Virus genome (UHGV): UHGV-0134280
Length of the DNA stretch: 39,537 nucleotides
Source: a virus
Direction: 5' to 3' (one strand)
In this document: one piece after another, positions 3,924-35,601 of the stretch
Position numbering within the stretch: the stretch's first letter is position 1
Layout: the number at the start of each line of letters is the position of its first letter
Notes under the pieces: generated by a model
Seen by the model: the letters and a program-made list of their open reading frames with translations, nothing else
Databases searched by the model: none
What the model was told of the DNA's origin: nothing
Made by a program: the position numbers and the translations under genes

Positions 3924-3950
3924 CCCGCAAAATATTGCGGGCTTTTTTTT
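3924..3950. terminator. Hairpin cccgcaa/ttgcggg with 8-T run at the 3' end of the tailspike gene
   Basis: Stem-loop 3924-3941; the T-run is on the plus strand and overlaps the tailspike stop codon, so the transcript it terminates is unclear. Confidence 0.4.
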
Positions 3951-6900
3951 AACGTTCTTCCAGAGACTGAATCCGCTCTTTTATCTTATCCATTTCTCTG
4001 CGCTGCCATGCTGCCTCGATATAGAATAAGAGATCAGGTCTGACCCCCCATCTAGATCCTGCTGGCGTTATTTCAACGCGCTCAATGATGTCTTCCATTA
4101 CCATCACTGGATTATCATCCTCATCAACAATGATGCTCCCGTCATTATCAGTCAGCGGAATTTCCCTTTGGCCAGTAATGACGTCATCATATACTGCGGG
4201 ATAATCGTCATAGCAAAGAAAGGCATAGCGGCATGTTGTGCTTTCTTCTTCCATGAGTCCGTGAGAAATAAGAACATCACGAAGTTGCTGCGCGATTACA
4301 CCATGATGTATCCTCGCCCCTTCTTCTCCCTTTATAGCGACAGCGTTCAGCCATTTATAAGCGATATACCTGACGTCACCCCAGGCATCCAGCAATGCTT
4401 CGTCAGGAGAGACCGGCTCTGTCTTTAATGTTCCGTCACTGGTAACCACAGGATTGGAGCCAAGATAAACTGTCGAGAACCTGTTTCCCGGACCACCAAG
4501 AGCATTTACATTATCAAGATAAGGTTTAACATCTCCGTTCTCAAAAAGATGTTCGAGTGCGTTATATACCGCGCGACGTGGAGTACTGCTTCCGGAACCA
4601 TGCAACGTTATCATTGCACCATCTGCTGAAGACGTTGTTTCACCGCCGCTAACGATTAATCTCTGAGCGGTAACATCATCAGACGGTACTTTCTTCGCAA
4701 TAATGGCGTAATTGCCCTCCAGTTTGACTTCCGCGCGAACTTGTCCTGATGTACCTGCATGGACAGTCAGTGACTGGACGGCAACATCATCTGTGAAATC
4801 AACGGGTACAGGAACCGTCCTCACGCCGGACGTCGACATAAAAGTAGGAAGCGTTCTGTTAGGAGTGGCTCCGTAGACAAAATCCCTTGAAACAAATTCT
4901 TCCTGTTTAATTTTCACCCTGAAACAATACAAATCAGCCGGGTGACCATCGTGAACATAAGGATATTTTCTGTTGTTATCCCCTATGCTCCATGGGTTTA
5001 GAAAGTCTTCCCCACCGAAAATGTAGTACAGCCAGTTGTCTTTGATACAAACTGAACCAACACCAACCGCAGAGTTAACTATTCCGCCCTGATAAATCTG
5101 ATCAGTAACATTAACCCACTCTACATTATCCAGACTCCACTCATTGACGTTAACTCTGGTCATAAATGTTCTTGGATAATTTCCTGCATAACGATTATCA
5201 GGTTCCCCTCCTTCCCACTCACCAAATGCGCGCTCACTGCCAAAAATAACCAGCTCATCGCCAACTTTGGCAAAAGGAAGGTTTGAGTGATGAACATTAT
5301 TTGGGAAGCGAAGAGAATTCCATGATGCACCTAAATCAGAGCTTCTGTGCAATGAACTACCAGGTTGAGTACTTAATGTCCCCCTGGTCGTCAGATACAG
5401 AATGCCATCATAATATTTTACACATGGCTCAGATGCATTCGCCTCATATTCTGCAGGTATGCGTCTGCGAACAAAGCTACCAGGAGAACCGAAAGCATCA
5501 GAGAAATAGAGTATCCCAAGCTCGCGTGGACCAATATCACCATTATGGTAGCCAACAGCAAAACTGTTATCGCTAATCGTCGCAAAACTGTGAATCTCAG
5601 TAACAGGAGTGCTTCCGTCAACAAAAGAAGGAATAGTTCCAAGACTGGTTTTTCTCCATGGTGACGAGTGAAATGATGTACCAAAACTCCAGTATCTACC
5701 CTCGTTATTCTGATCCACATCCTGAGTATTTTGCGTCGTAACTGTAAAAGTATTTTTATCAATAACAGTAGTCACCGTCATATTCCCGGTAACACCTGTA
5801 ACACCAGAGTTTGAGAAGTTGACAAAATCACCAGCAAATAATCCGTGATCAGTAATGCGAATATAAGCGACTTGCTGATTTGCTGCTTTCGTTATACCAC
5901 CATAAACGCGAAGGCTGCGACTCATTGGACGATCCCACAACTCTGCAACCTGCAGTTTATTTCCGCTCACGGTCCGCGTCTCAATTACAGCAAAAAGGCG
6001 ATTTCTGACAACCCCCATACTCATGCAGTGATAGTTAACTGTGGGATAGTTTTCATGTAAATCTGTAAGCCATTCCGGCGTTGTCCAGGTCTTCCCGTCA
6101 TCTCCTGAGCGAACCCATGCAACATGGAGGTTATTTACACCATGGCGGTCTCCAGCCATAAAAGGCGCATAGATGACATTGTCATATACAAACGTTTTAT
6201 CCTGCGTCCAGGCGTTGTACCACGGTGTATCTGTAATTTTAAATAACTCTCCCTGGATAAAATCTTCAGAAGCATAAAAAAGAGGCTGACCCGGTATTCT
6301 CTCAAATAAAAAACGAGCATTTTTAAATCGGCTGACATCCGGAAGAGTTGATACTTTAAAAGTAAGCCCTAATCCGTCAATTTTATAACCTGGAGATGAG
6401 GCTTCAAGGCACGCGCTTATTGCAGTGGAATCGTCATTTATACCATCACCAACAGCTCCAAAATCTTTGGGGCTAATAGCATCACGCATTTTATCCTGGA
6501 ACGTTCGGTATACTGCCCCAGAACCATACTGAATAAACCAACCAAAACCACCAACAACCCCGGCGATTGCAGCATCGACATAATTACGCATTGAGCGATT
6601 ATTTACAGCGTCCTGTTCAAGTGATGGATCTGCAAGGTTAGAAATTCTGTTTTGCTTTGCATCGTAATATTTTGCAAGCAAAGATGGTTTCATCAATGCA
6701 CGTCTGAACCATCCAAAACATTGCTGGATCAGCATCGTCAGGTAGTCAAAGGCATCTTCATGCACTTCGGGGAAAAACTTTCCCTGATTGCGAAGGTCTG
6801 TCTCCTGCACTACATCAAGCACACGATCTATCGTAATTCGCCAGCCAGCAGCAAGCGGCGACGGAAGAACAACAGAACCGCCACTATAAGTGCCCGCCCC

Positions 6901-7068
6901 AGTTACCGTATAACCGGTATCCAGAACCAATTCTGTTACGTTCCCGTTCAGGTCAGACACCTGAACAACCAGGTCGGATTTTTTGAAAATACGGAAGGTA
7001 TACGGAAATGATGTCGTAGCGCCGTTACCGGTGTATTCGTTGTGGTCAACTTCGGTTGAGACCGTCAT
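3949..7068 (-). CDS. Tailspike/tail fibre: T7 gp17-like N-terminal anchor, sialidase-type beta-propeller with Asp-boxes, C-terminal intramolecular chaperone (peptidase S74-like)
   Basis: N-terminal pattern resembles the T7 fibre anchor; Asp-boxes SGDDGKTW and SSDLGASW; C-terminal about 160 aa carries SDGTLK...YKW...GVIAQQL typical of auto-cleaving chaperone domains. Confidence 0.75.
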   Translation of the reverse strand: MTVSTEVDHNEYTGNGATTSFPYTFRIFKKSDLVVQVSDLNGNVTELVLDTGYTVTGAGTYSGGSVVLPSPLAAGWRITIDRVLDVVQETDLRNQGKFFPEVHEDAFDYLTMLIQQCFGWFRRALMKPSLLAKYYDAKQNRISNLADPSLEQDAVNNRSMRNYVDAAIAGVVGGFGWFIQYGSGAVYRTFQDKMRDAISPKDFGAVGDGINDDSTAISACLEASSPGYKIDGLGLTFKVSTLPDVSRFKNARFLFERIPGQPLFYASEDFIQGELFKITDTPWYNAWTQDKTFVYDNVIYAPFMAGDRHGVNNLHVAWVRSGDDGKTWTTPEWLTDLHENYPTVNYHCMSMGVVRNRLFAVIETRTVSGNKLQVAELWDRPMSRSLRVYGGITKAANQQVAYIRITDHGLFAGDFVNFSNSGVTGVTGNMTVTTVIDKNTFTVTTQNTQDVDQNNEGRYWSFGTSFHSSPWRKTSLGTIPSFVDGSTPVTEIHSFATISDNSFAVGYHNGDIGPRELGILYFSDAFGSPGSFVRRRIPAEYEANASEPCVKYYDGILYLTTRGTLSTQPGSSLHRSSDLGASWNSLRFPNNVHHSNLPFAKVGDELVIFGSERAFGEWEGGEPDNRYAGNYPRTFMTRVNVNEWSLDNVEWVNVTDQIYQGGIVNSAVGVGSVCIKDNWLYYIFGGEDFLNPWSIGDNNRKYPYVHDGHPADLYCFRVKIKQEEFVSRDFVYGATPNRTLPTFMSTSGVRTVPVPVDFTDDVAVQSLTVHAGTSGQVRAEVKLEGNYAIIAKKVPSDDVTAQRLIVSGGETTSSADGAMITLHGSGSSTPRRAVYNALEHLFENGDVKPYLDNVNALGGPGNRFSTVYLGSNPVVTSDGTLKTEPVSPDEALLDAWGDVRYIAYKWLNAVAIKGEEGARIHHGVIAQQLRDVLISHGLMEEESTTCRYAFLCYDDYPAVYDDVITGQREIPLTDNDGSIIVDEDDNPVMVMEDIIERVEITPAGSRWGVRPDLLFYIEAAWQRREMDKIKERIQSLEER

Positions 7069-7171: not shown

Positions 7172-7188
7172 ATTACCTTTCAGGTAAT
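7172..7188. promoter_or_regulatory. 17-bp palindrome ATTACC-TTTCA-GGTAAT (site A, perfect)
   Basis: Read directly; in the divergent region between tailspike and the KilAC gene; an extra half-site ATTACCT lies at 7122-7128. Confidence 0.6.
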
Positions 7189-7263: not shown

Positions 7264-7521
7264 ATGCAGCAGTATCACTATCCACTGGAAGACGGATTTA
7301 CCGAAAGGATTCACACGCCGGGAGGCGTCAGGTCACTGGTGGAGGGATCGCACTTGATGAAATTACTCCGGGATCTCAATAAGGATGGATTTAATGTCGA
7401 TGGCCCACTTGCCGAACTGACTGCACTGATTAACTACGTCACCAGCTCACAGATGTCTATGCAGGATCTGCAAACACATCTCGACTATTGTGCCGAACAA
7501 TTACGAAAACAAACCAGGTAA
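7264..7521 (+). CDS. Small KilAC/ANT C-terminal-domain protein (candidate SOS-controlled antirepressor)
   Basis: 86 aa from MQQYHY with GGAGAAG RBS; paralogous to the C-terminal domain of the Bro-N protein at 8668..9360. Confidence 0.55.
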   Translation: MQQYHYPLEDGFTERIHTPGGVRSLVEGSHLMKLLRDLNKDGFNVDGPLAELTALINYVTSSQMSMQDLQTHLDYCAEQLRKQTR

Positions 7522-7527
7522 ATTTAA

Positions 7528-7552
7528 AGGCCGCAAGAGCGGCCTATCGTTT
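7528..7552. terminator. Hairpin ggccgc-aaga-gcggcc between convergent genes
   Basis: 6-bp GC stem right after the stop at 7521, overlapping the stop of the minus gene; weak T-tract. Confidence 0.4.
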
Positions 7553-8272
7553 CGCTTTGTGCTCGTCCCAGCACGTTTTGCACCATGCCATTAAGCCGTC
7601 CGCATTTTGATTATTAGGGTAAAAGCTGGTTCGTTTTCTGCGGACATTACAAATTGGGCACCACTTCATATGACGTGTATTCTTTGGGCCATCGAGACAC
7701 CTTGCACACCACTTAGTCAATCCATCCGGATTTTTTGACGATTTCCTGAATTTTTCATATGGAAGGTTTATTCTGCATCGCAAGCACTGCTTGCTACCGC
7801 TTGAAACTCTGTTAGCTGATTCTTCTTTTGGCGGCGATACAGAAGATATTCTTGCTGGCTCTGATACTGCCTGAGGTGCTTTTTTAAATGACTGAGACGA
7901 TATGTCATCACCAGGGAATCTTCCATGATATGCCGGACGCGTTGACACTCCAGGTGGAAGCTCAGCTGTAAACGGCTTTGGCTGAATCAGTTGCCTCTCT
8001 TTTGCTAACTCCTGCTGTTTATAATATGTCTGGATTACCGCACTATCATAAGCATGAGGTACGGAAATATCAGGAGCGTTACCTCCAGTTTTTTGAAACT
8101 GAGTAGATGTGTGCTCTATCACCTGTGTACGATTAATCGTTATCTCCCCATCTTCGGTCTTTATCGTTTTGTTCTGATTAACGACCGTACGATCAGAGAT
8201 CTTAGTCTTGTTCTGGTTGATAACGTAAATAATCACCGCAACCACACCAACAACTATCCAGAAAACTTCCAT
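7544..8272 (-). CDS. N-terminally membrane-anchored protein with two C-terminal zinc-ribbon repeats, function unknown
   Basis: TM helix at residues 4-20; duplicated C-x2-C...DGL..WC..C modules in a basic C-terminal domain; GAGGAAAA RBS. Confidence 0.5.
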   Translation of the reverse strand: MEVFWIVVGVVAVIIYVINQNKTKISDRTVVNQNKTIKTEDGEITINRTQVIEHTSTQFQKTGGNAPDISVPHAYDSAVIQTYYKQQELAKERQLIQPKPFTAELPPGVSTRPAYHGRFPGDDISSQSFKKAPQAVSEPARISSVSPPKEESANRVSSGSKQCLRCRINLPYEKFRKSSKNPDGLTKWCARCLDGPKNTRHMKWCPICNVRRKRTSFYPNNQNADGLMAWCKTCWDEHKAKR

Positions 8273-8291
8273 TGCTTTTCCTCACAATAAC

Positions 8292-8308
8292 ATTACCTTA
8301 AAGGTAAT
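8292..8308. promoter_or_regulatory. 17-bp palindrome ATTACC-TTAAA-GGTAAT (site B, perfect)
   Basis: Read directly; immediately upstream of the RBS of the 7544..8272 gene. Confidence 0.6.
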
Positions 8309-8384
8309 ATCTTGCTTTCAGGTGATCAAGCGTTAAACGCAATCAACCAAATACGGTTGATTTTAATGTTTTTTCGCGCTTATC

Positions 8385-8401: not shown

Positions 8402-8667
8402 TTTACATCGCACTCCTCTTGTGCCATAGTAATCGGGCACTGGCAAAATCCAGTGCCGGGATTGGTCTCCCGGATTACTACAGAGGCACATATGCCGCAT
8501 AAGCGGTTTTTTTATGTGTAAAGCGCACCTATTCTATGGTGGGCTGTGTGGGGGCACCGAAAGGTGCGCCGGGTTCCTTTGTAGCCGGTAAGACCAACTC
8601 TGCACAGTTCACCACCATCTGATTGGTCTCAGCGGTGGTGATTAACCTAACTACAAAGGTGATCGCC

Positions 8668-9360
8668 ATGAATACCAAACCTTCCATCTTTTCCTTTGAG
8701 TCATCCTGCCAGATCCGTATGTTCATGATTGACGGAGAACCTTGGTTTGTCACCAAAGATGTGTGCAATGCTTTGAATATTGATGTTACACAAGCGAGAA
8801 AACTTGATAAAAAAGGCTGGAACAAAAAGGGGCTGCATTCAATACAGACCCCTGGTGGAATACAAGAACTATCCATCGTTTCAGAATCAGGTCTCTACAT
8901 CCTTATTCTGCGTTGCAAAGAGGCAATGACAGAGGGAACGAGAGCATTCAGATTTCTTGAATGGGTTACAGGTGAGGTTCTTCCTCAGATCCGCCGCACC
9001 GGAAGCTACATTAAAAACTCGCTCCCGCAGGAAGAACGCATAAAGATGGTTGCCGACCAGGTTGCCAACGCCACGGCGTCAGCAGTGATGCAGGCAATGA
9101 AGATAGAGAACAAAACCTACAGCGCCCCACTGAAGCCCGGCTACCGCAGTCTGATTCACTCGCCGTCTGGTGTTCTCGGCCTGACGGAGAACTCACTGCT
9201 GATGAATCTGCTGAACCAGTTACAGGAAGACGGGCACGACGTATCGGGCGCGGCGGCGGAGCTGACCACCATGTTCTGCTACATCGTCGGTGTGAGCAAA
9301 TGCCTGCGTGATATCGAGACCCACGCGGAGTACATCAACGATAAAGCAGGATTTTTCTGA
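8668..9360 (+). CDS. Ant-like antirepressor (Bro-N domain plus KilAC/ANT C-terminal domain)
   Basis: N-terminal pattern IRMFMIDGEPWFVTKDVCNAL typical of Bro-N; C-terminal domain paralogous to 7264..7521; start trimmed to MNTKP. Confidence 0.7.
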   Translation: MNTKPSIFSFESSCQIRMFMIDGEPWFVTKDVCNALNIDVTQARKLDKKGWNKKGLHSIQTPGGIQELSIVSESGLYILILRCKEAMTEGTRAFRFLEWVTGEVLPQIRRTGSYIKNSLPQEERIKMVADQVANATASAVMQAMKIENKTYSAPLKPGYRSLIHSPSGVLGLTENSLLMNLLNQLQEDGHDVSGAAAELTTMFCYIVGVSKCLRDIETHAEYINDKAGFF

Positions 9361-9460: not shown

Positions 9461-9628
9461 ATGACAGCGTTGAAAAATCGTACTCAGCACAATGAACAAG
9501 CCAAGCAATGCTGGGATGTCATTGGAAAAGTTATGCTTGGCCGCGCAAGCAAAGAGCGCGACAAGGATATGGTTTACCAGACAGGAACATCTTTCAGCGA
9601 CTTCAAGGCGGCATTTCGCTCCAAATAG
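9461..9628 (+). CDS. Small 55-aa protein, first gene of a two-gene moron
   Basis: ATG with AAGGAGG RBS; not in the ORF track because under 60 aa; translation MTALKNRTQHNEQAKQCWDVIGK...; 20 bp before the next gene. Confidence 0.4.
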   Translation: MTALKNRTQHNEQAKQCWDVIGKVMLGRASKERDKDMVYQTGTSFSDFKAAFRSK

Positions 9629-10343: not shown

Positions 10344-12818
10344 TTATTGCGGAGTGACATCCTGTGGTCGCCACCAGTATGTCTGGTTAAACTCTTTCTT
10401 CGAACGTTGCTCCATTTTACGCAAATAACCTGGTGAAAAATACTCCTGCATCTGGTTAAAGATCATGTGATCGAGAGCCGCCTTCAAGTACCAGAGATTC
10501 GCACCTGGCATCAGACCTTTCCCCAGCTTAACCAGATCACCACCAGTCTGCTCACTCTTCCCTTCCACAGCATTTAACGGTATGCCCTGAGCAATCTTCA
10601 CTACGTCATCAACCAGACCAGCTACCGGGCCAAGCATCGACGCCAGCGCGCCGCTTCCGTACCTAGTGTGATCTGACAATAAAAAGTCACCGTAAAGGCC
10701 AAGACCACCACCTTTCAGTAGAGCACCAAGCCAAAATTTAGCAGCATCTTCTCCTGTCATCTCGCGAGGATTACGACCAGACGCAAGGTCGTTAAGTTGC
10801 TGCGACAAAGCGCCAAGAATGGTCGTACTGGCAATAAACGTCGCAATATATGCCGCACGCCCACCAGCAGACGGCATACCCATAGCGCGTGACCAGTGAC
10901 GCATAACCACCGAGATAGGGAACGATTTAAACAGGAAAACACTTCTCGTTAATTCACCTTTCCATGTTCCACGCTGAATACCAGAACCGGTTATCAGTTG
11001 CTCACGTGCTCCCGGTGTAATAACAGCCATATCAACTTCTTCAGTTATGGCACCGAGCAGTTTACGCATTGCCTCAAATTTCACGCGTTCAGGCTCACCA
11101 AGATGTTTAACTGCTGAATCAGGGATACGCATAATGCTTTCCGGTGTCAGCATCGTATTATTGCCGTTCCCCCAGTCCTCCTGTTGCGCCAGCTTCCATA
11201 CGCTCCAGTCTGTGTCAGTAATCCCTTTGCTTTTCAGGATGCGAAAATCAGAATCATCGAGGCTACGAAGGTCTGGTGTCCGTGACACTACTTCTCCCAA
11301 GCTTCCCATCATGGTTACGCCATAGGCGCGCTTGTGCGCATCTGACCATGCTGTAAGCCCACTGGCACGCATTACCGCCGTTGCAGCCCAACGAGACACA
11401 GACGGCCCCATATTATCCATCGCCCAGCGGTTAACGCTGCCAAGTAGAGATTCCATCGCCAGACCAGCGCGGCGCGCCCGCGCAAGTTCTGTACGGTTCG
11501 TTGGGTCCATAGCTTCAAGCTGGTTGCGGAATAACTGGTTCATTGGAAGGTTGGTCACCTTCGCAGACAGATACATGGTTCCAAGATCAGAGAACGATGA
11601 CAGCAACGCGGATCCGAGTCTGCTGGCAACCAGCCAGTTGCGGATATTGTCAGACCATCGCGCGATGTGCGGATTCGCTACAGGCTGTGTCTTTCCGGAA
11701 ATAAAGTTGTACAGATTCTCTGTGTTGTTCGCCAGCCGCTCGACTTTACCGGTTTTACTCGGGTTAGCTGTTGCCGTTTCTGCCTTCACCTGATCAAGAA
11801 GAGAGCGGAAAACATGATCGGGGTTTGGGCCATATGTTTCCACCAGTGCAATATCTTTACTGATACCTTCCAGGTGACCGACCATGATTTCCCATAGAGA
11901 GCGATCGCCATAAAGTTGCTGATATTGCAGATAGGAATCTGCATCTTTGAAATGTATCTGTCGTGATGTATTACCACGGTTAGCACGTGCGCCTGAAATT
12001 CGCATTCCGGTATCAGTAAGCTTATTCAGCCCACCAGTAGCGATCGTGTTATAAGCCTCTCCAAGAAATGCAGACAACTCGGAATCGTTCATCAGTTGTC
12101 CATCGGCTCGGATATAATATTTGCGATCCAGCTTACCTATAACATCGCTAACCCACTTATCCTTTGATACCGCCCCAACCTTTTCCATAGAATGATGTTG
12201 AGGGATTCCCCAGTTTTCGAGATAGCCAATGTCCCCACCAGCATCATTAAACCGGCGGCGCAGTAGATCTGTCACTTCTCTCCACGCCTTAGCACCTTTT
12301 CTTGCTTTAGCATTGCCAGTATTTTGCCCTCGCATTTCATATACCAGGTCACGCACGCCAGCTTCATCTTCAAACAGGCCAAAAAAGCGAGGATCAACTG
12401 CTTCAAATGCCTCTTGCAATTGACTCAATGCATAATCACGAGTGGCTTTTGTTCTGGACTCAACAGAGAGGAAATTCGATTTACCGTCTGCATTAAAAGC
12501 AATAGTACGGTTAAGAGCGCCAAGTTTCCCATCAGCCCCTTGATAGCTATTGATAAATTTATCCAATCTCTGACGTGCGGATATAGTGAGGGCCACACGA
12601 CGTTTCTTTAATGCCGCTTCTCGCTGTAATTCTTCAGATGCCAATTGTGCTGCACGATATAGCCGCTCTGATTCGGAAAGTTGTCTCCACGACATCGGGT
12701 CATCACGAGCAATGGAGCGCATATTTCGATAAATGCGGTCTTCAATGTTCTGTATTTCTCGCGCCGTTAACGTGCGCTGCGCCGCCTGCTGGACCGCTTG
12801 TATACATTCCTGTCTCAT
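10344..12818 (-). CDS. Internal virion/ejection protein (T7 gp16-like, C-terminal part)
   Basis: 824 aa; called by size and position in the gp13-gp16-like block upstream of the tailspike. Confidence 0.5.
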   Translation of the reverse strand: MRQECIQAVQQAAQRTLTAREIQNIEDRIYRNMRSIARDDPMSWRQLSESERLYRAAQLASEELQREAALKKRRVALTISARQRLDKFINSYQGADGKLGALNRTIAFNADGKSNFLSVESRTKATRDYALSQLQEAFEAVDPRFFGLFEDEAGVRDLVYEMRGQNTGNAKARKGAKAWREVTDLLRRRFNDAGGDIGYLENWGIPQHHSMEKVGAVSKDKWVSDVIGKLDRKYYIRADGQLMNDSELSAFLGEAYNTIATGGLNKLTDTGMRISGARANRGNTSRQIHFKDADSYLQYQQLYGDRSLWEIMVGHLEGISKDIALVETYGPNPDHVFRSLLDQVKAETATANPSKTGKVERLANNTENLYNFISGKTQPVANPHIARWSDNIRNWLVASRLGSALLSSFSDLGTMYLSAKVTNLPMNQLFRNQLEAMDPTNRTELARARRAGLAMESLLGSVNRWAMDNMGPSVSRWAATAVMRASGLTAWSDAHKRAYGVTMMGSLGEVVSRTPDLRSLDDSDFRILKSKGITDTDWSVWKLAQQEDWGNGNNTMLTPESIMRIPDSAVKHLGEPERVKFEAMRKLLGAITEEVDMAVITPGAREQLITGSGIQRGTWKGELTRSVFLFKSFPISVVMRHWSRAMGMPSAGGRAAYIATFIASTTILGALSQQLNDLASGRNPREMTGEDAAKFWLGALLKGGGLGLYGDFLLSDHTRYGSGALASMLGPVAGLVDDVVKIAQGIPLNAVEGKSEQTGGDLVKLGKGLMPGANLWYLKAALDHMIFNQMQEYFSPGYLRKMEQRSKKEFNQTYWWRPQDVTPQ

Positions 12819-26012: not shown

Positions 26013-26101
26013 ATCAATGACTCCGTACGCAATTAAATTATTACCAATTTAACCACATATGATTTATTTATCGTAGACGGTTGACATTTAACGCGTGAAT
26101 T

Positions 26102-26118
26102 ATTACCTTTCAGGTAAC
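26102..26118. promoter_or_regulatory. 17-bp palindrome ATTACC-TTTCA-GGTAAc (site E)
   Basis: Read directly; about 16 bp after a TTGACA hexamer at 26081-26086; upstream of the tRNA island. Confidence 0.5.
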
Positions 26119-26439
26119 CAAAGAGTTCATTCCGGTTACTAACCTGACTGGCTTGTCGTTAAATTGAACAGGTGGAGTGAGCTTTTATTTTGAGCAGTAC
26201 GGCGTATGGCACATGCGCCGATAGCGGTCTGGATACGTTTAAGGGGCACCCTCCCTTGCTCGGGCAAACGAACCAGGTAGCCGGAATGTGCAAGTCGAGC
26301 GGTTTTATTCCGCGCACGGGGATTCACCATCCAGGCGATTCGGTGTGACACCTCGGAAGAGACGAGGGTACAACGATGAGAGCATTTATGGAGCCGCGAC
26401 AAAGTGTGGCGCCTTAACAGGCTAAGTGCTCTCAGCGTT

Positions 26440-26516
26440 GTGGCATTAGCTCAGCTGGACAGAGCAACCGCCTTCTAAGCGGTTGGTCGCAGGTTCGAAT
26501 CCTGCATGCCACGCCA
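26440..26516 (+). tRNA. tRNA-Arg (anticodon UCU)
   Basis: Cloverleaf folded by hand: 7-bp acceptor stem GTGGCAT/ATGCCAC, D-arm, anticodon loop CTTCTAA, T-loop TTCGAAT, discriminator G and encoded CCA. Confidence 0.85.
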
Positions 26517-26714: not shown

Positions 26715-27086
26715 ATGAACGACCAGCAAATCGAAAAAGAAATCGTTGAGAAAGGCAAAACTGCTCCGCGCGTTACGCCAGACCATATCGAAAGCATTAT
26801 TGCTCAGGAGGCATATTTCACAGCAGAGGATGGTGCCTTTGGCAAAGCCATAAAAGAGAAACATACTGGCGGAGAGGTAAACTACCAGCCGCACGAATCA
26901 CTTTCTCTGCTGACGTTCTGCGTCCTGGTGCTGCGCAACGGCTTCACCGTCACCGGAGTGAGCGCCTGTGCAAGCCCGGAAAACTTTGATGCAGAAATTG
27001 GTCGGAAGATTGCCCGGCAGAATGCTGTAAACAAAATCTGGATGCTTGAAGGTTACTTGCTGAAGCAGAAGTTAAGCGAGCAATAA
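26715..27086 (+). CDS. Small phage protein, possibly N4 gp49 / Sf6 gp66 family
   Basis: 123 aa with AAGGTGAG RBS on the strand opposite the structural genes; family assignment from memory only. Confidence 0.4.
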   Translation: MNDQQIEKEIVEKGKTAPRVTPDHIESIIAQEAYFTAEDGAFGKAIKEKHTGGEVNYQPHESLSLLTFCVLVLRNGFTVTGVSACASPENFDAEIGRKIARQNAVNKIWMLEGYLLKQKLSEQ

Positions 27087-34631: not shown

Positions 34632-34862
34632 TCATGAGTAGAAGAAGTATGCCAGTTCTGCTTTTGAGCGCAGCCATTGTCTTGTTTTACAGGCTTTAAA
34701 AAGCCCATTCATCAATACCTTACCTGGCATTTTGCGCTTACCTGTTAAGTGAGTCTGGATATAGTGACTCGTCGTTCCGGCTTCCTGTGCGAAGGCTTCA
34801 CGCTCATCCGGAGTAAGTGCAAGCCAGTGCTTTTTGAAATCGAAATGTCCGTTATCGCTCAT
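34632..34862 (-). CDS. Cro-like HTH regulator (XRE family)
   Basis: 76 aa; HTH-like segment QEAGTTSHYIQTHLTGKRKMPG; first gene of the early operon divergent from the repressor. Confidence 0.55.
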   Translation of the reverse strand: MSDNGHFDFKKHWLALTPDEREAFAQEAGTTSHYIQTHLTGKRKMPGKVLMNGLFKACKTRQWLRSKAELAYFFYS

Positions 34863-34906: not shown

Positions 34907-34961
34907 AAGGTAACAAAAATCAAGGATAGTTACCTATGAGGTGCATTTACCTGTTGGGTAA
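34907..34961. promoter_or_regulatory. Operator array in the divergent immunity region (overlapping TTACC/GGTAA sites K and L plus a half-site)
   Basis: AGGTAAC at 34907-34913, TTACC-TATGA-GGTgc at 34929-34945, TTACC-TGTTG-GGTAAT at 34945-34961; between the Cro-like start (34862) and repressor start (35017). Confidence 0.55.
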
Positions 34962-35016: not shown

Positions 35017-35601
35017 ATGAAAAGTATCCAGGACGTCCGCAGGCAAAATCTCAACGACTTGATCGACCGTGAATTCAATGGTGTTCAGACGCGGATGGCA
35101 GAAAAACTTGGAACTCAGGCAAATCTGGTAAACCGCTGGGCTCTTGGCAAGAAGGTTATCGGCGACCAGGTTGCGCGAAAAATTGAAGCTGCCGCCAATA
35201 AACCCCGTAACTGGCTTGATATCGATCGCTCGCTTTCTCAGGAAGGTTTTCAGCCTGTCGGCCCAAGCGACATTGGTCAGCTGGCGGCTCACAACCTGGA
35301 ACGCTGGATGAGCGAAAGCCGCGACCTTTCAACACAGGGAAAACTTCACCGCGCATCCGGCGTCGCCCAGGTAACAATCAGCCGCCTGTTAAACAATGAG
35401 GTCAGCGTTTCCATTTCCACCCTGGAGAATGTTGCATCCGCATTCGGGCGTCACGGCTATGAATTACTGATTCACCCGCACGACCCTGCGACCATCAACT
35501 ATGACCGCTCGCGCTACGCATTGTTACCCGAAACCGAGAAAGCAAAGATCGAAAGTTACATTGAATTTGTCATCAACCAGAACGAAAAAAATAAACAATA
35601 A
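35017..35601 (+). CDS. Immunity repressor candidate with two XRE-type HTH domains and no S24 peptidase domain
   Basis: HTH-like segments around residues 20-55 and 105-150; no LexA-like Ser/Lys autocleavage module seen; no obvious RBS (possibly leaderless). Confidence 0.65.
   Translation: MKSIQDVRRQNLNDLIDREFNGVQTRMAEKLGTQANLVNRWALGKKVIGDQVARKIEAAANKPRNWLDIDRSLSQEGFQPVGPSDIGQLAAHNLERWMSESRDLSTQGKLHRASGVAQVTISRLLNNEVSVSISTLENVASAFGRHGYELLIHPHDPATINYDRSRYALLPETEKAKIESYIEFVINQNEKNKQ

Follow-up and report, generated by a model that had tools for sequence, protein, structure and literature searches.

What is the function of the open reading frame (ORF) at positions 7544..8272 on the minus strand of the virus genome UHGV-0134280? 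The stretch of DNA analyzed here in full (39,537 nucleotides (nt), hereafter called the window) represents a temperate epsilon15/phiV10-like podophage (Uetakevirus) of Escherichia coli, and the ORF encodes, from an ATG start, a 242-amino-acid protein belonging to PHROG 6762. We describe the protein as a predicted inner-membrane protein with tandem zinc-binding-type modules, and we report that its homologues recur in the immunity regions of other prophages. Because an anatomy suited to binding at the membrane face is combined with such neighborhoods and with the distribution of a dispensable accessory gene, we tentatively favor a role as an exclusion or defense factor that is tethered to the inner membrane and captures DNA or protein.

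Architecture and conservation of the protein

The ORF is a genuine conserved gene. Its product matches PHROG 6762, a family of unknown function, over the full length (positions 1-242 of 242; E=1.8e-147, 490.8 bits), which supersedes the statement in a preliminary description of this locus that no family could be assigned. Homologues form 33 clusters in Escherichia, Superficieibacter, Enterobacter, Citrobacter, Salmonella, Serratia, Providencia, Buttiauxella, and Pectobacterium, and identities among the Enterobacterales homologues (at least nine genera) are 39-97%. An exhaustive profile search returned 23 representatives at E<1e-30, and about 60 clusters (50% identity) share a plan of a hydrophobic N terminus and four CxxC motifs within 180-240 amino acids. 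All 53 E. coli-type copies (37 alleles) are intact at 729 nt, with dN/dS of 0.12-0.33. The gene is carried by 129 of 5426 complete E. coli genomes (2.4%, K1 strains included), always full-length and chromosomal, and an identical protein is encoded on IMG/VR contig L025. The closest deposited phage for the gene region, TL-2011b (96% nucleotide identity), likewise has an intact ORF although its record labels the region a misc_feature. The possibility that the gene is a fragment of a longer ORF spanning this 1089-bp misc_feature was ruled out, since the extra 360 bp are accounted for by isrK/C4 RNA genes on the opposite strand and TL-2011b has an intact, co-linear ORF.

The protein begins with a transmembrane (TM) helix at residues 3-21 (EVFWIVVGVVAVIIYVI; 8210..8266, minus strand, as for all parts of the protein given here). 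Both hydropathy (Kyte-Doolittle mean of 2.33 for residues 1-19) and AlphaFold2 (helix 3-21, pLDDT about 90) agree with the single N-terminal TM helix that had been proposed from the sequence. A juxtamembrane motif, N-Q-N-K/R-T, directly follows the helix, and next comes a conserved membrane-adjacent beta-hairpin at residues 29-52 (TIKTEDGEI.I.RTQV; 8117..8188), which is modeled with moderate confidence (pLDDT about 68) and is succeeded by a short helix at residues 77-89. Residues 57-158 (7799..8104) constitute a variable, mostly disordered tether rich in Pro, Ser, and Gln that differs in length by about 40 residues between homologues. Within it, AlphaFold2 and composition indicate disorder throughout residues 90-158, in accordance with the long linker described earlier.

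The compact C-terminal part (residues 160-241; pLDDT 92-96 in the full-length model, mean 89 when modeled alone) contains two zinc modules. Module 1 spans residues 160-194 (7691..7795; C163, C166, C189, C192, and W188) with the order strand-strand-strand-strand-helix, and module 2, an internal repeat of module 1, spans residues 202-236 (7565..7669; C205, C208, C231, C234, and W230). Each unit runs from a CxxC through three short strands and a DG loop to a strand that ends in WC, with the final xxC at the start of the helix. The corresponding motifs are KWCARC, KWCPIC, and AWCKTC, together with CLRC as the first knuckle. The domain (residues 159-242) is strongly basic, with a pI of 9.9 and 20 K+R versus 6 D+E. 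The preliminary description had proposed a structure prediction as a check, and AlphaFold2 recovered its main elements, namely the N-terminal helix and a compact basic domain of two repeated Cys4 modules, each with a Trp.

An alignment of 51 sequences, with identities as low as 19-30%, shows all eight Cys and W188 to be invariant and K161, F175, D183, G184, K203, R212, D225, G226, L227, and W230 to be nearly so; S178 and K180 of module 1 are also conserved. The zinc domain is 84% identical to the Superficieibacter and Providencia versions. In the TM helix, V7, G9, and V11 are invariant within the close family, and E2, F4, W5, and V10 are conserved in at least 90% of sequences. This is far more than an inert anchor would need and hints at a specific intramembrane contact.

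The helix is preceded by ME and followed by NQNKTKISDR. By far the most likely orientation predicted from these features is N-out/C-in, with two residues outside and the zinc modules in the cytoplasm; eight cysteines of the zinc-binding type would be ill-suited to the periplasm. We rejected a periplasmic protein or a cleavable signal peptide, given the lack of a positively charged n-region and of an AxA site, a hydrophobic core of 17 residues, and the eight Cys. With the predicted topology, the protein would be anchored to the inner membrane and would hold its binding domain in the cytoplasm at the end of a tether of about 100 residues.

Relatives of the zinc modules

The sole Pfam match of the protein is to Stc1 (PF12898) and scores 21.2 bits (E=4.3e-4), short of the 24.8-bit gathering threshold, which relatives with more repeats of the module do pass. 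No NCBIfam model matched the protein above threshold, and a sequence-profile search of the PDB returned only PacI, below threshold (E=0.26). Among PHROG profiles, families annotated as endonuclease VII or HNH endonuclease align through their N-terminal parts with the zinc modules. Searching the BFVD viral models gave 43 matches at E<=1e-3, whose informative names are mostly HNH, beta-beta-alpha-Me, EndoVII, and "Stc1 domain," from phages and giant viruses. Up to ten copies of the module are present in large proteins with ResIII/DEAD or SF1 helicase, winged helix-turn-helix (wHTH), and HEAT-repeat parts, and its fusions to helicase and wHTH fit a nucleic-acid context. The common scaffold is a zinc-stabilized beta-beta-alpha arrangement, as in the HNH enzymes Hpy99I and PacI and in Stc1-like fingers.

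The 51-sequence alignment contains no conserved His in either module, neither a catalytic His ending strand 1 nor a His/Asn metal ligand in the helix, and the Pfam models HNH and Endonuclease_7 do not match. Because the catalytic residues are absent, we regard the modules as binding fingers, either derived from nucleases or associated with them, and not as a nuclease. They differ from the fingers of Stc1, HNH enzymes, EndoVII, PacI, and Hpy99I in that no nuclease domain follows, the catalytic His/Asn are gone, and a membrane anchor is part of the same protein. Their ligand is most probably nucleic acid and possibly protein. The earlier suggestion of a membrane-tethered DNA or RNA binder thus remains plausible in view of a fold like that of the zinc fingers attached to HNH and EndoVII enzymes and of the basic character of the domain.

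Distant relatives P0079, P0088, and P0092 have a precomputed match to PF27269. Two variants from Pasteurellaceae, in Aggregatibacter (L017) and Haemophilus (L018), keep the tandem zinc fingers and have a predicted coiled coil in place of the hairpin and linker. The Aggregatibacter copy lacks the TM helix, and the Haemophilus copy has a Bro-N/P22_AR_C antirepressor gene as its divergent neighbor.

Predicted control by the phage repressor

As stated in the preliminary description, the gene has its own ribosome-binding site, a Shine-Dalgarno sequence GAGGA 6 nt 5' of the ATG (8279..8283, minus strand), and a terminator-like hairpin at its 3' end. The hairpin, AGGCCGC-TCTT-GCGGCCT (7528..7545), overlaps the stop codon and, together with TTAAATTT, forms a minus-strand element (7518..7545) shared with a convergent small gene. 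Upstream we predict a sigma-70 promoter, TTGATC-N17-TACCTT (8301..8329, minus strand; not on the list of a consensus promoter scan). Its -10 element lies within the perfect 17-bp palindrome ATTACCTTTAAGGTAAT (8292..8308), a copy of a putative repressor operator, TTACC-N5-GGTAA. Of the 53 E. coli-type loci, 52 retain the palindrome in perfect form.

The palindrome had been noted before as a feature of this gene; it is indeed present but is not private to it, being one of 14 sites that also bracket the repressor gene. With up to one mismatch, TTACC-N5-GGTAA occurs 14 times in the window versus 0.68 expected, a number reached in 0 of 100 shuffles. The 15-bp sites start, in plus-strand coordinates, at 7173, 8293, 8386, 9434, 26103, 29245, 29263, 32554, 32616, 34562, 34899, 34947, 35659, and 35721. 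A tripartite cluster (34899, a weaker site near 34923, and 34947) separates a cro-like ORF (34632..34862, minus strand) from an HTH_3 gene (35017..35601, plus strand), and two further sites just 3' of the HTH_3 gene lie over the early promoter of the rightward operon, TTGACA-N17-AATCAT. At 100% identity, the HTH protein matches the ORF21 repressor of vB_EcoP_ZX5, overexpression of which was shown to control the lytic-lysogenic switch (PMC9782041). Single operator copies precede the small gene at 7264 and an ORF at 9461, the copy before an isrK-C4-Bro-N operon abuts its -10 element TATCAT, and a tRNA-Arg unit is preceded by a copy that encloses the -10 element of a near-consensus promoter, TTGACA-N17-TACCTT (26082..26117). 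This scattered operator family resembles the dispersed, P1 C1-like type of regulon.

As the palindrome is a copy of this operator family and overlaps the predicted -10 element, the gene appears to be wired into the repressor regulon. In the phage of the window it is thus probably kept off by the repressor in the lysogen and switched on soon after infection or induction. The geometry of a -10 element inside the operator is also found at 26082..26117 and recurs, with different flanks, in four other epsilon15-like lineages (L079, L084, L002, and L006). The promoter is TTGACC-N17-TACCTT upstream of the L079 and L084 homologues and TTGAAC-N17-TACCTT upstream of the Serratia homologue; in Providencia it is TTGAAT-N17-TAACCT and the palindrome is altered to TTAACC-N5-GGTTAA. 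A second conserved palindrome, TGTGACATGTCACA, is located about 60-75 nt before the ATG, beyond the operator-promoter, in L010 (Superficieibacter), L079, and L084, and is absent from the E. coli version.

These results modify the proposal that the gene is an independent moron. Its own ribosome-binding site, predicted promoter, and terminator, and its absence from phiV10, agree with that proposal, but the operator lies over the predicted -10 element and the GC content of the gene (0.44) is that of its flanking genes (0.43-0.46). A classical moron is expressed from the repressed prophage (PMC3594210), and the Juhala/Hendrix definition also calls for a GC content that sets it apart from its neighbors. 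The scattered-operator regulon would provide an example of how epsilon15-like phages place acquired cassettes under repressor control.

Immunity-region neighborhoods

The gene is located in an accessory region flanked by the tailspike gene (3949..7068, minus strand) and a large virion-protein gene (10344..12818, minus strand), and the repressor gene is not adjacent. In epsilon15-like prophages of E. coli, Serratia, Providencia, Yersinia, Superficieibacter, and Acinetobacter, the homologue invariably occupies the interval that separates the tailspike gene from the upstream genes for large virion proteins, in either orientation. Found beside it there are antirepressors (Bro-N, KilA-N/ANT, or pRha), RNAs (isrK/C4 or sar), Arc-like repressors, and toxin-antitoxin genes, such as YafO in TL-2011b. 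The region is equivalent to the immI region of P22, in which sieA-mnt-arc-ant is placed between genes 16 and 9. In the epsilon15-like Acinetobacter locus L012, the gene comes after an Arc-like gene whose divergent neighbor encodes a KilA-N antirepressor, in the manner of mnt followed by sieA in P22.

Lambda-like prophages carry the homologue directly 3' of cI and on the same strand, as in Aeromonas phage phiARM81mr, Acinetobacter L013, Marinobacterium L015, Neptunomonas L020, L095-L104, and L107. At four of the junctions between cI and the homologue, the gap is 15-19 bp, with a ribosome-binding site and without a terminator, which argues for co-transcription with cI; in L013 a hairpin separates the two genes. 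In Oceanobacter L016 and Pseudoalteromonas L019, the homologue and cI converge, and the homologue lies directly against the 3' end of cI. The slot downstream of cI is the one occupied by rexAB in lambda. In Buttiauxella, the gene is part of a small integrative element with a CI-like repressor and serine recombinases. A PADLOC scan of genes flanking the homologues gave two weak, unrelated matches only and no defense-island signal.

In some loci, the homologue is followed by an unrelated small gene with a signal-peptide-like start (L088, 6645..7073; L010, 6748..7284; L015, 6654..7307; L020, 6383..6931), which sometimes overlaps it by the stop and start codons. The L015 product is SNase-like (PADLOC C3a212, E=6e-8). 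The window contains no such partner.

Accessory membrane-protein cargo in prophage immunity regions is already well known. As far as could be determined, neither the combination of a single anchor with dead-HNH/Stc1-like tandem fingers nor the tight association with cI has been described previously.

Possible functions

Two known accessory proteins offer the closest comparisons. Like the protein studied here, P22 SieA is an accessory membrane protein encoded in an immI-type region near the tailspike gene of a temperate podophage, beside regulators of the mnt/arc/ant type (PMC10883804), with ejection-protein genes on the other flank in P22 and large virion-protein genes in the window phage. SieA, however, has 164 amino acids, three TM segments, and no zinc fingers, whereas the zinc-finger protein has one TM segment. 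The SieA family is characterized by an FxRYPxEAxxFNK motif and three to four TM segments (PMC10883804), which the zinc-finger protein lacks. Moreover, P22 SieA is expressed in lysogens, whereas the zinc-finger gene carries a putative repressor operator. HK97 gp15 is similarly a small inner-membrane protein encoded by an independent cassette with promoter and terminator in only some relatives (PMC3594210); in contrast to the gene described here, with its predicted promoter overlapping the operator and a GC content similar to that of its neighbors, gp15 is a YebO-like protein that the repressed prophage produces. With lambda rexAB, the homologues of lambda-like prophages share the position after cI, but they are single genes unrelated to RexA or RexB, and in the window the gene is not beside the repressor.

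In the mechanism that we consider for an exclusion or defense factor, the single N-terminal helix would pin the protein to the cytoplasmic face of the inner membrane, from which the basic tandem fingers would reach out on the flexible tether of about 100 residues to bind, not cut, their ligand. Acting at the site of entry, the tethered fingers could seize or obstruct either the DNA of an incoming foreign phage or the cytoplasmic end of its injection apparatus, which would be functionally analogous to the action of P22 SieA, HK97 gp15, or T4 Imm. In the window phage the gene would be turned on when repressor is absent, and the lambda-like homologues would be made along with cI. Cargo beside prophage repressor genes has repeatedly proved to be anti-phage defense, as for rexAB, sieA, BstA, and mycobacteriophage systems.

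Several observations weigh against such a role. We found no characterized member of the family, PADLOC-DB 2.0 yielded nothing for the protein but TniQ at E=0.13, and there is no similarity to SieA (BLASTP, E=0.23 over 7 residues). In the lysogen of the window phage the gene is probably off, judging by its operator, unlike classical exclusion genes and opposite to the homologues co-transcribed with cI. The strong conservation of the zinc domain fits a constant ligand better than a sensor engaged in an arms race, and non-specific binding of DNA would capture host DNA too. In the sole case studied, yeast Stc1, fingers of the Stc1 type bind protein (PMC2875855).

This last observation speaks for a rival explanation, regulation by sequestration in the early phase, in which the fingers would draw a cytoplasmic protein to the membrane and thereby bias the lysis-lysogeny decision or host physiology. 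Candidates are a host factor, the repressor, an antirepressor, or a component of division or proteolysis. The gene sits in decision regions beside cI, cro, Arc, and antirepressors; in the window it has an operator-controlled intergenic region in common with the isrK-C4-Bro-N operon; and the time just after infection is the one phase in which expression is certain under both designs, operator control and co-transcription with cI. The strong conservation of the zinc domain and TM helix is also in keeping with such a regulator. The architecture is like that of E. coli ZipA, which has an N-terminal anchor, a flexible Pro/Gln-rich tether, and a globular binding domain. Nevertheless, the gene is dispensable, given that phiV10, ZX5, and others lack it and ZX5 was shown to lysogenize (PMC9782041), no co-varying partner was found in the loci examined, and the strongly basic domain and the nuclease and helicase fusions favor a nucleic-acid ligand. 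We therefore judge sequestration unlikely. Another rival is an early protein that would tether replicating or incoming DNA of the phage itself to the membrane by means of a C-terminal DNA-binding domain. Both phi29 p16.7 and ZipA resemble the zinc-finger protein in having an N-terminal anchor, almost nothing outside, a flexible tether, and a cytoplasmic C-terminal binding domain; the binding domains differ from zinc fingers, that of p16.7 being homeodomain-like and that of ZipA binding FtsZ. The p16.7 plan of N-terminal TM segment, oligomerizing segment, linker, and DNA-binding C-terminal domain, the basic C-terminal domain, and the early, repressor-controlled expression predicted in the window phage are consistent with a DNA organizer of this kind. 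It is nonetheless quite unlikely, since those homologues that share a transcript with cI would be present in lysogens, where the phage does not replicate, and the gene is accessory within one genus and unlinked to the replication genes (32.6-34.3 kb of the window).

The unusually conserved sequence of the TM helix and juxtamembrane hairpin, and the rexAB-like position of homologues 3' of cI, could also be read as signs of an abortive-infection effector, in which the fingers would sense a phage component and the helix and hairpin would oligomerize and depolarize the membrane. A single TM helix with a two-residue outside tail and the lack of similarity in PADLOC to known TM effectors argue against this, and the lytic cycle of the window phage would express the gene without obvious self-immunity; we consider this explanation very unlikely. 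The preliminary description had seen a resemblance to anti-sigma factors, to which a TM segment and cysteines of the zinc-binding type would indeed correspond. However, neither Pfam nor NCBIfam gave a ZAS, zf-HC2, or other anti-sigma match, the topology is inverted with the TM segment at the N terminus, and there is neither an extracytoplasmic sensor domain nor an HxxxCxxC motif. A membrane-bound anti-sigma factor, or equally an active HNH nuclease given the missing catalytic residues and Pfam matches described above, is extremely improbable.

An exclusion or defense factor remains the reading that we favor. A bolder version of it, which we regard as doubtful, is that the family represents a new class of immunity-region proteins of temperate phages, widespread in Gammaproteobacteria, that would act as a "molecular flypaper" and seize foreign DNA or the tip of its conduit with a nuclease-derived binding module. 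The family recurs beside repressor genes in prophages of Enterobacterales, Aeromonas, Acinetobacter, and several marine genera of Gammaproteobacteria, and its architecture is unusually simple and testable. Phage exclusion by this protein would constitute a new mechanism with relevance to phage therapy against K1 E. coli. Even if it has a different role, the protein would be a clean case of a nuclease-derived zinc-finger module reused as a membrane-tethered binder.

Cassette boundaries and surrounding genes

The gene forms a cassette of about 850 bp (approximately 7521..8375) that begins just past the convergent small gene and stops shortly ahead of the isrK promoter. It is present in the window and in TL-2011b and absent from phiV10 and most relatives; among 15 distinct phages (16 records) with nucleotide matches, TL-2011b alone carries the gene. 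At the upstream edge of the cassette, a second terminator-like hairpin on the plus strand (AATCAACC..GGTTGATT, 8341..8362) is followed by a T-run (8341..8375 in all). This hairpin would halt antisense read-through ahead of the isrK promoter, and together with the hairpin at 7528..7545 it would shield the cassette from antisense read-through from the small gene.

Divergent from the zinc-finger gene, on the plus strand, are the Hfq-binding RNA isrK (8437..8513, 74.7 bits), the C4 antisense RNA (8532..8619, 78.6 bits), and, 3' of this tandem, a Bro-N antirepressor gene (8623/8670..9360). The trio forms a P1 immI-like or Gifsy-1 isrK-like module and is also found in TL-2011b and in Serratia prophages; TL-2011b has, in addition, a P22-type sar RNA with Arc/Ant. 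An obligatory functional link between this operon and the zinc-finger gene was ruled out, as Serratia has an intervening gene and a different orientation.

The tailspike is a complete endosialidase with End_N_terminal, beta-propeller, beta-barrel, and End_tail_spike parts and a Peptidase_S74 chaperone. It carries an epsilon15-type N-terminal adaptor and looks like a graft. The spikes of TL-2011b and phiV10 differ from it. Because the tailspike is an endosialidase, K1-capsulated strains are the likely target of the window phage. The product of the large gene on the other flank (10344..12818) has no Pfam match; it is homologous to phiV10 p20, annotated "virion structural protein," and presumably has an ejection or internal-protein role.

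The tRNA-Arg unit (anticodon TCT; 26082..26516, plus strand) is on the strand opposite to the head genes and is followed by an ORF of the N4 gp49/Sf6 gp66 family (26715..27086). Next to the tailspike gene, the small gene (7264..7521, plus strand) with its own operator at 7173 encodes an 85-amino-acid protein of the epsilon15 gp19/phiV10 p24 family. Over 74 residues, this protein shares 41% identity (E=2e-15) with the C-terminal part of the Bro-N antirepressor (8623..9360), and it resembles a free-standing copy of the Bro-N C-terminal domain.

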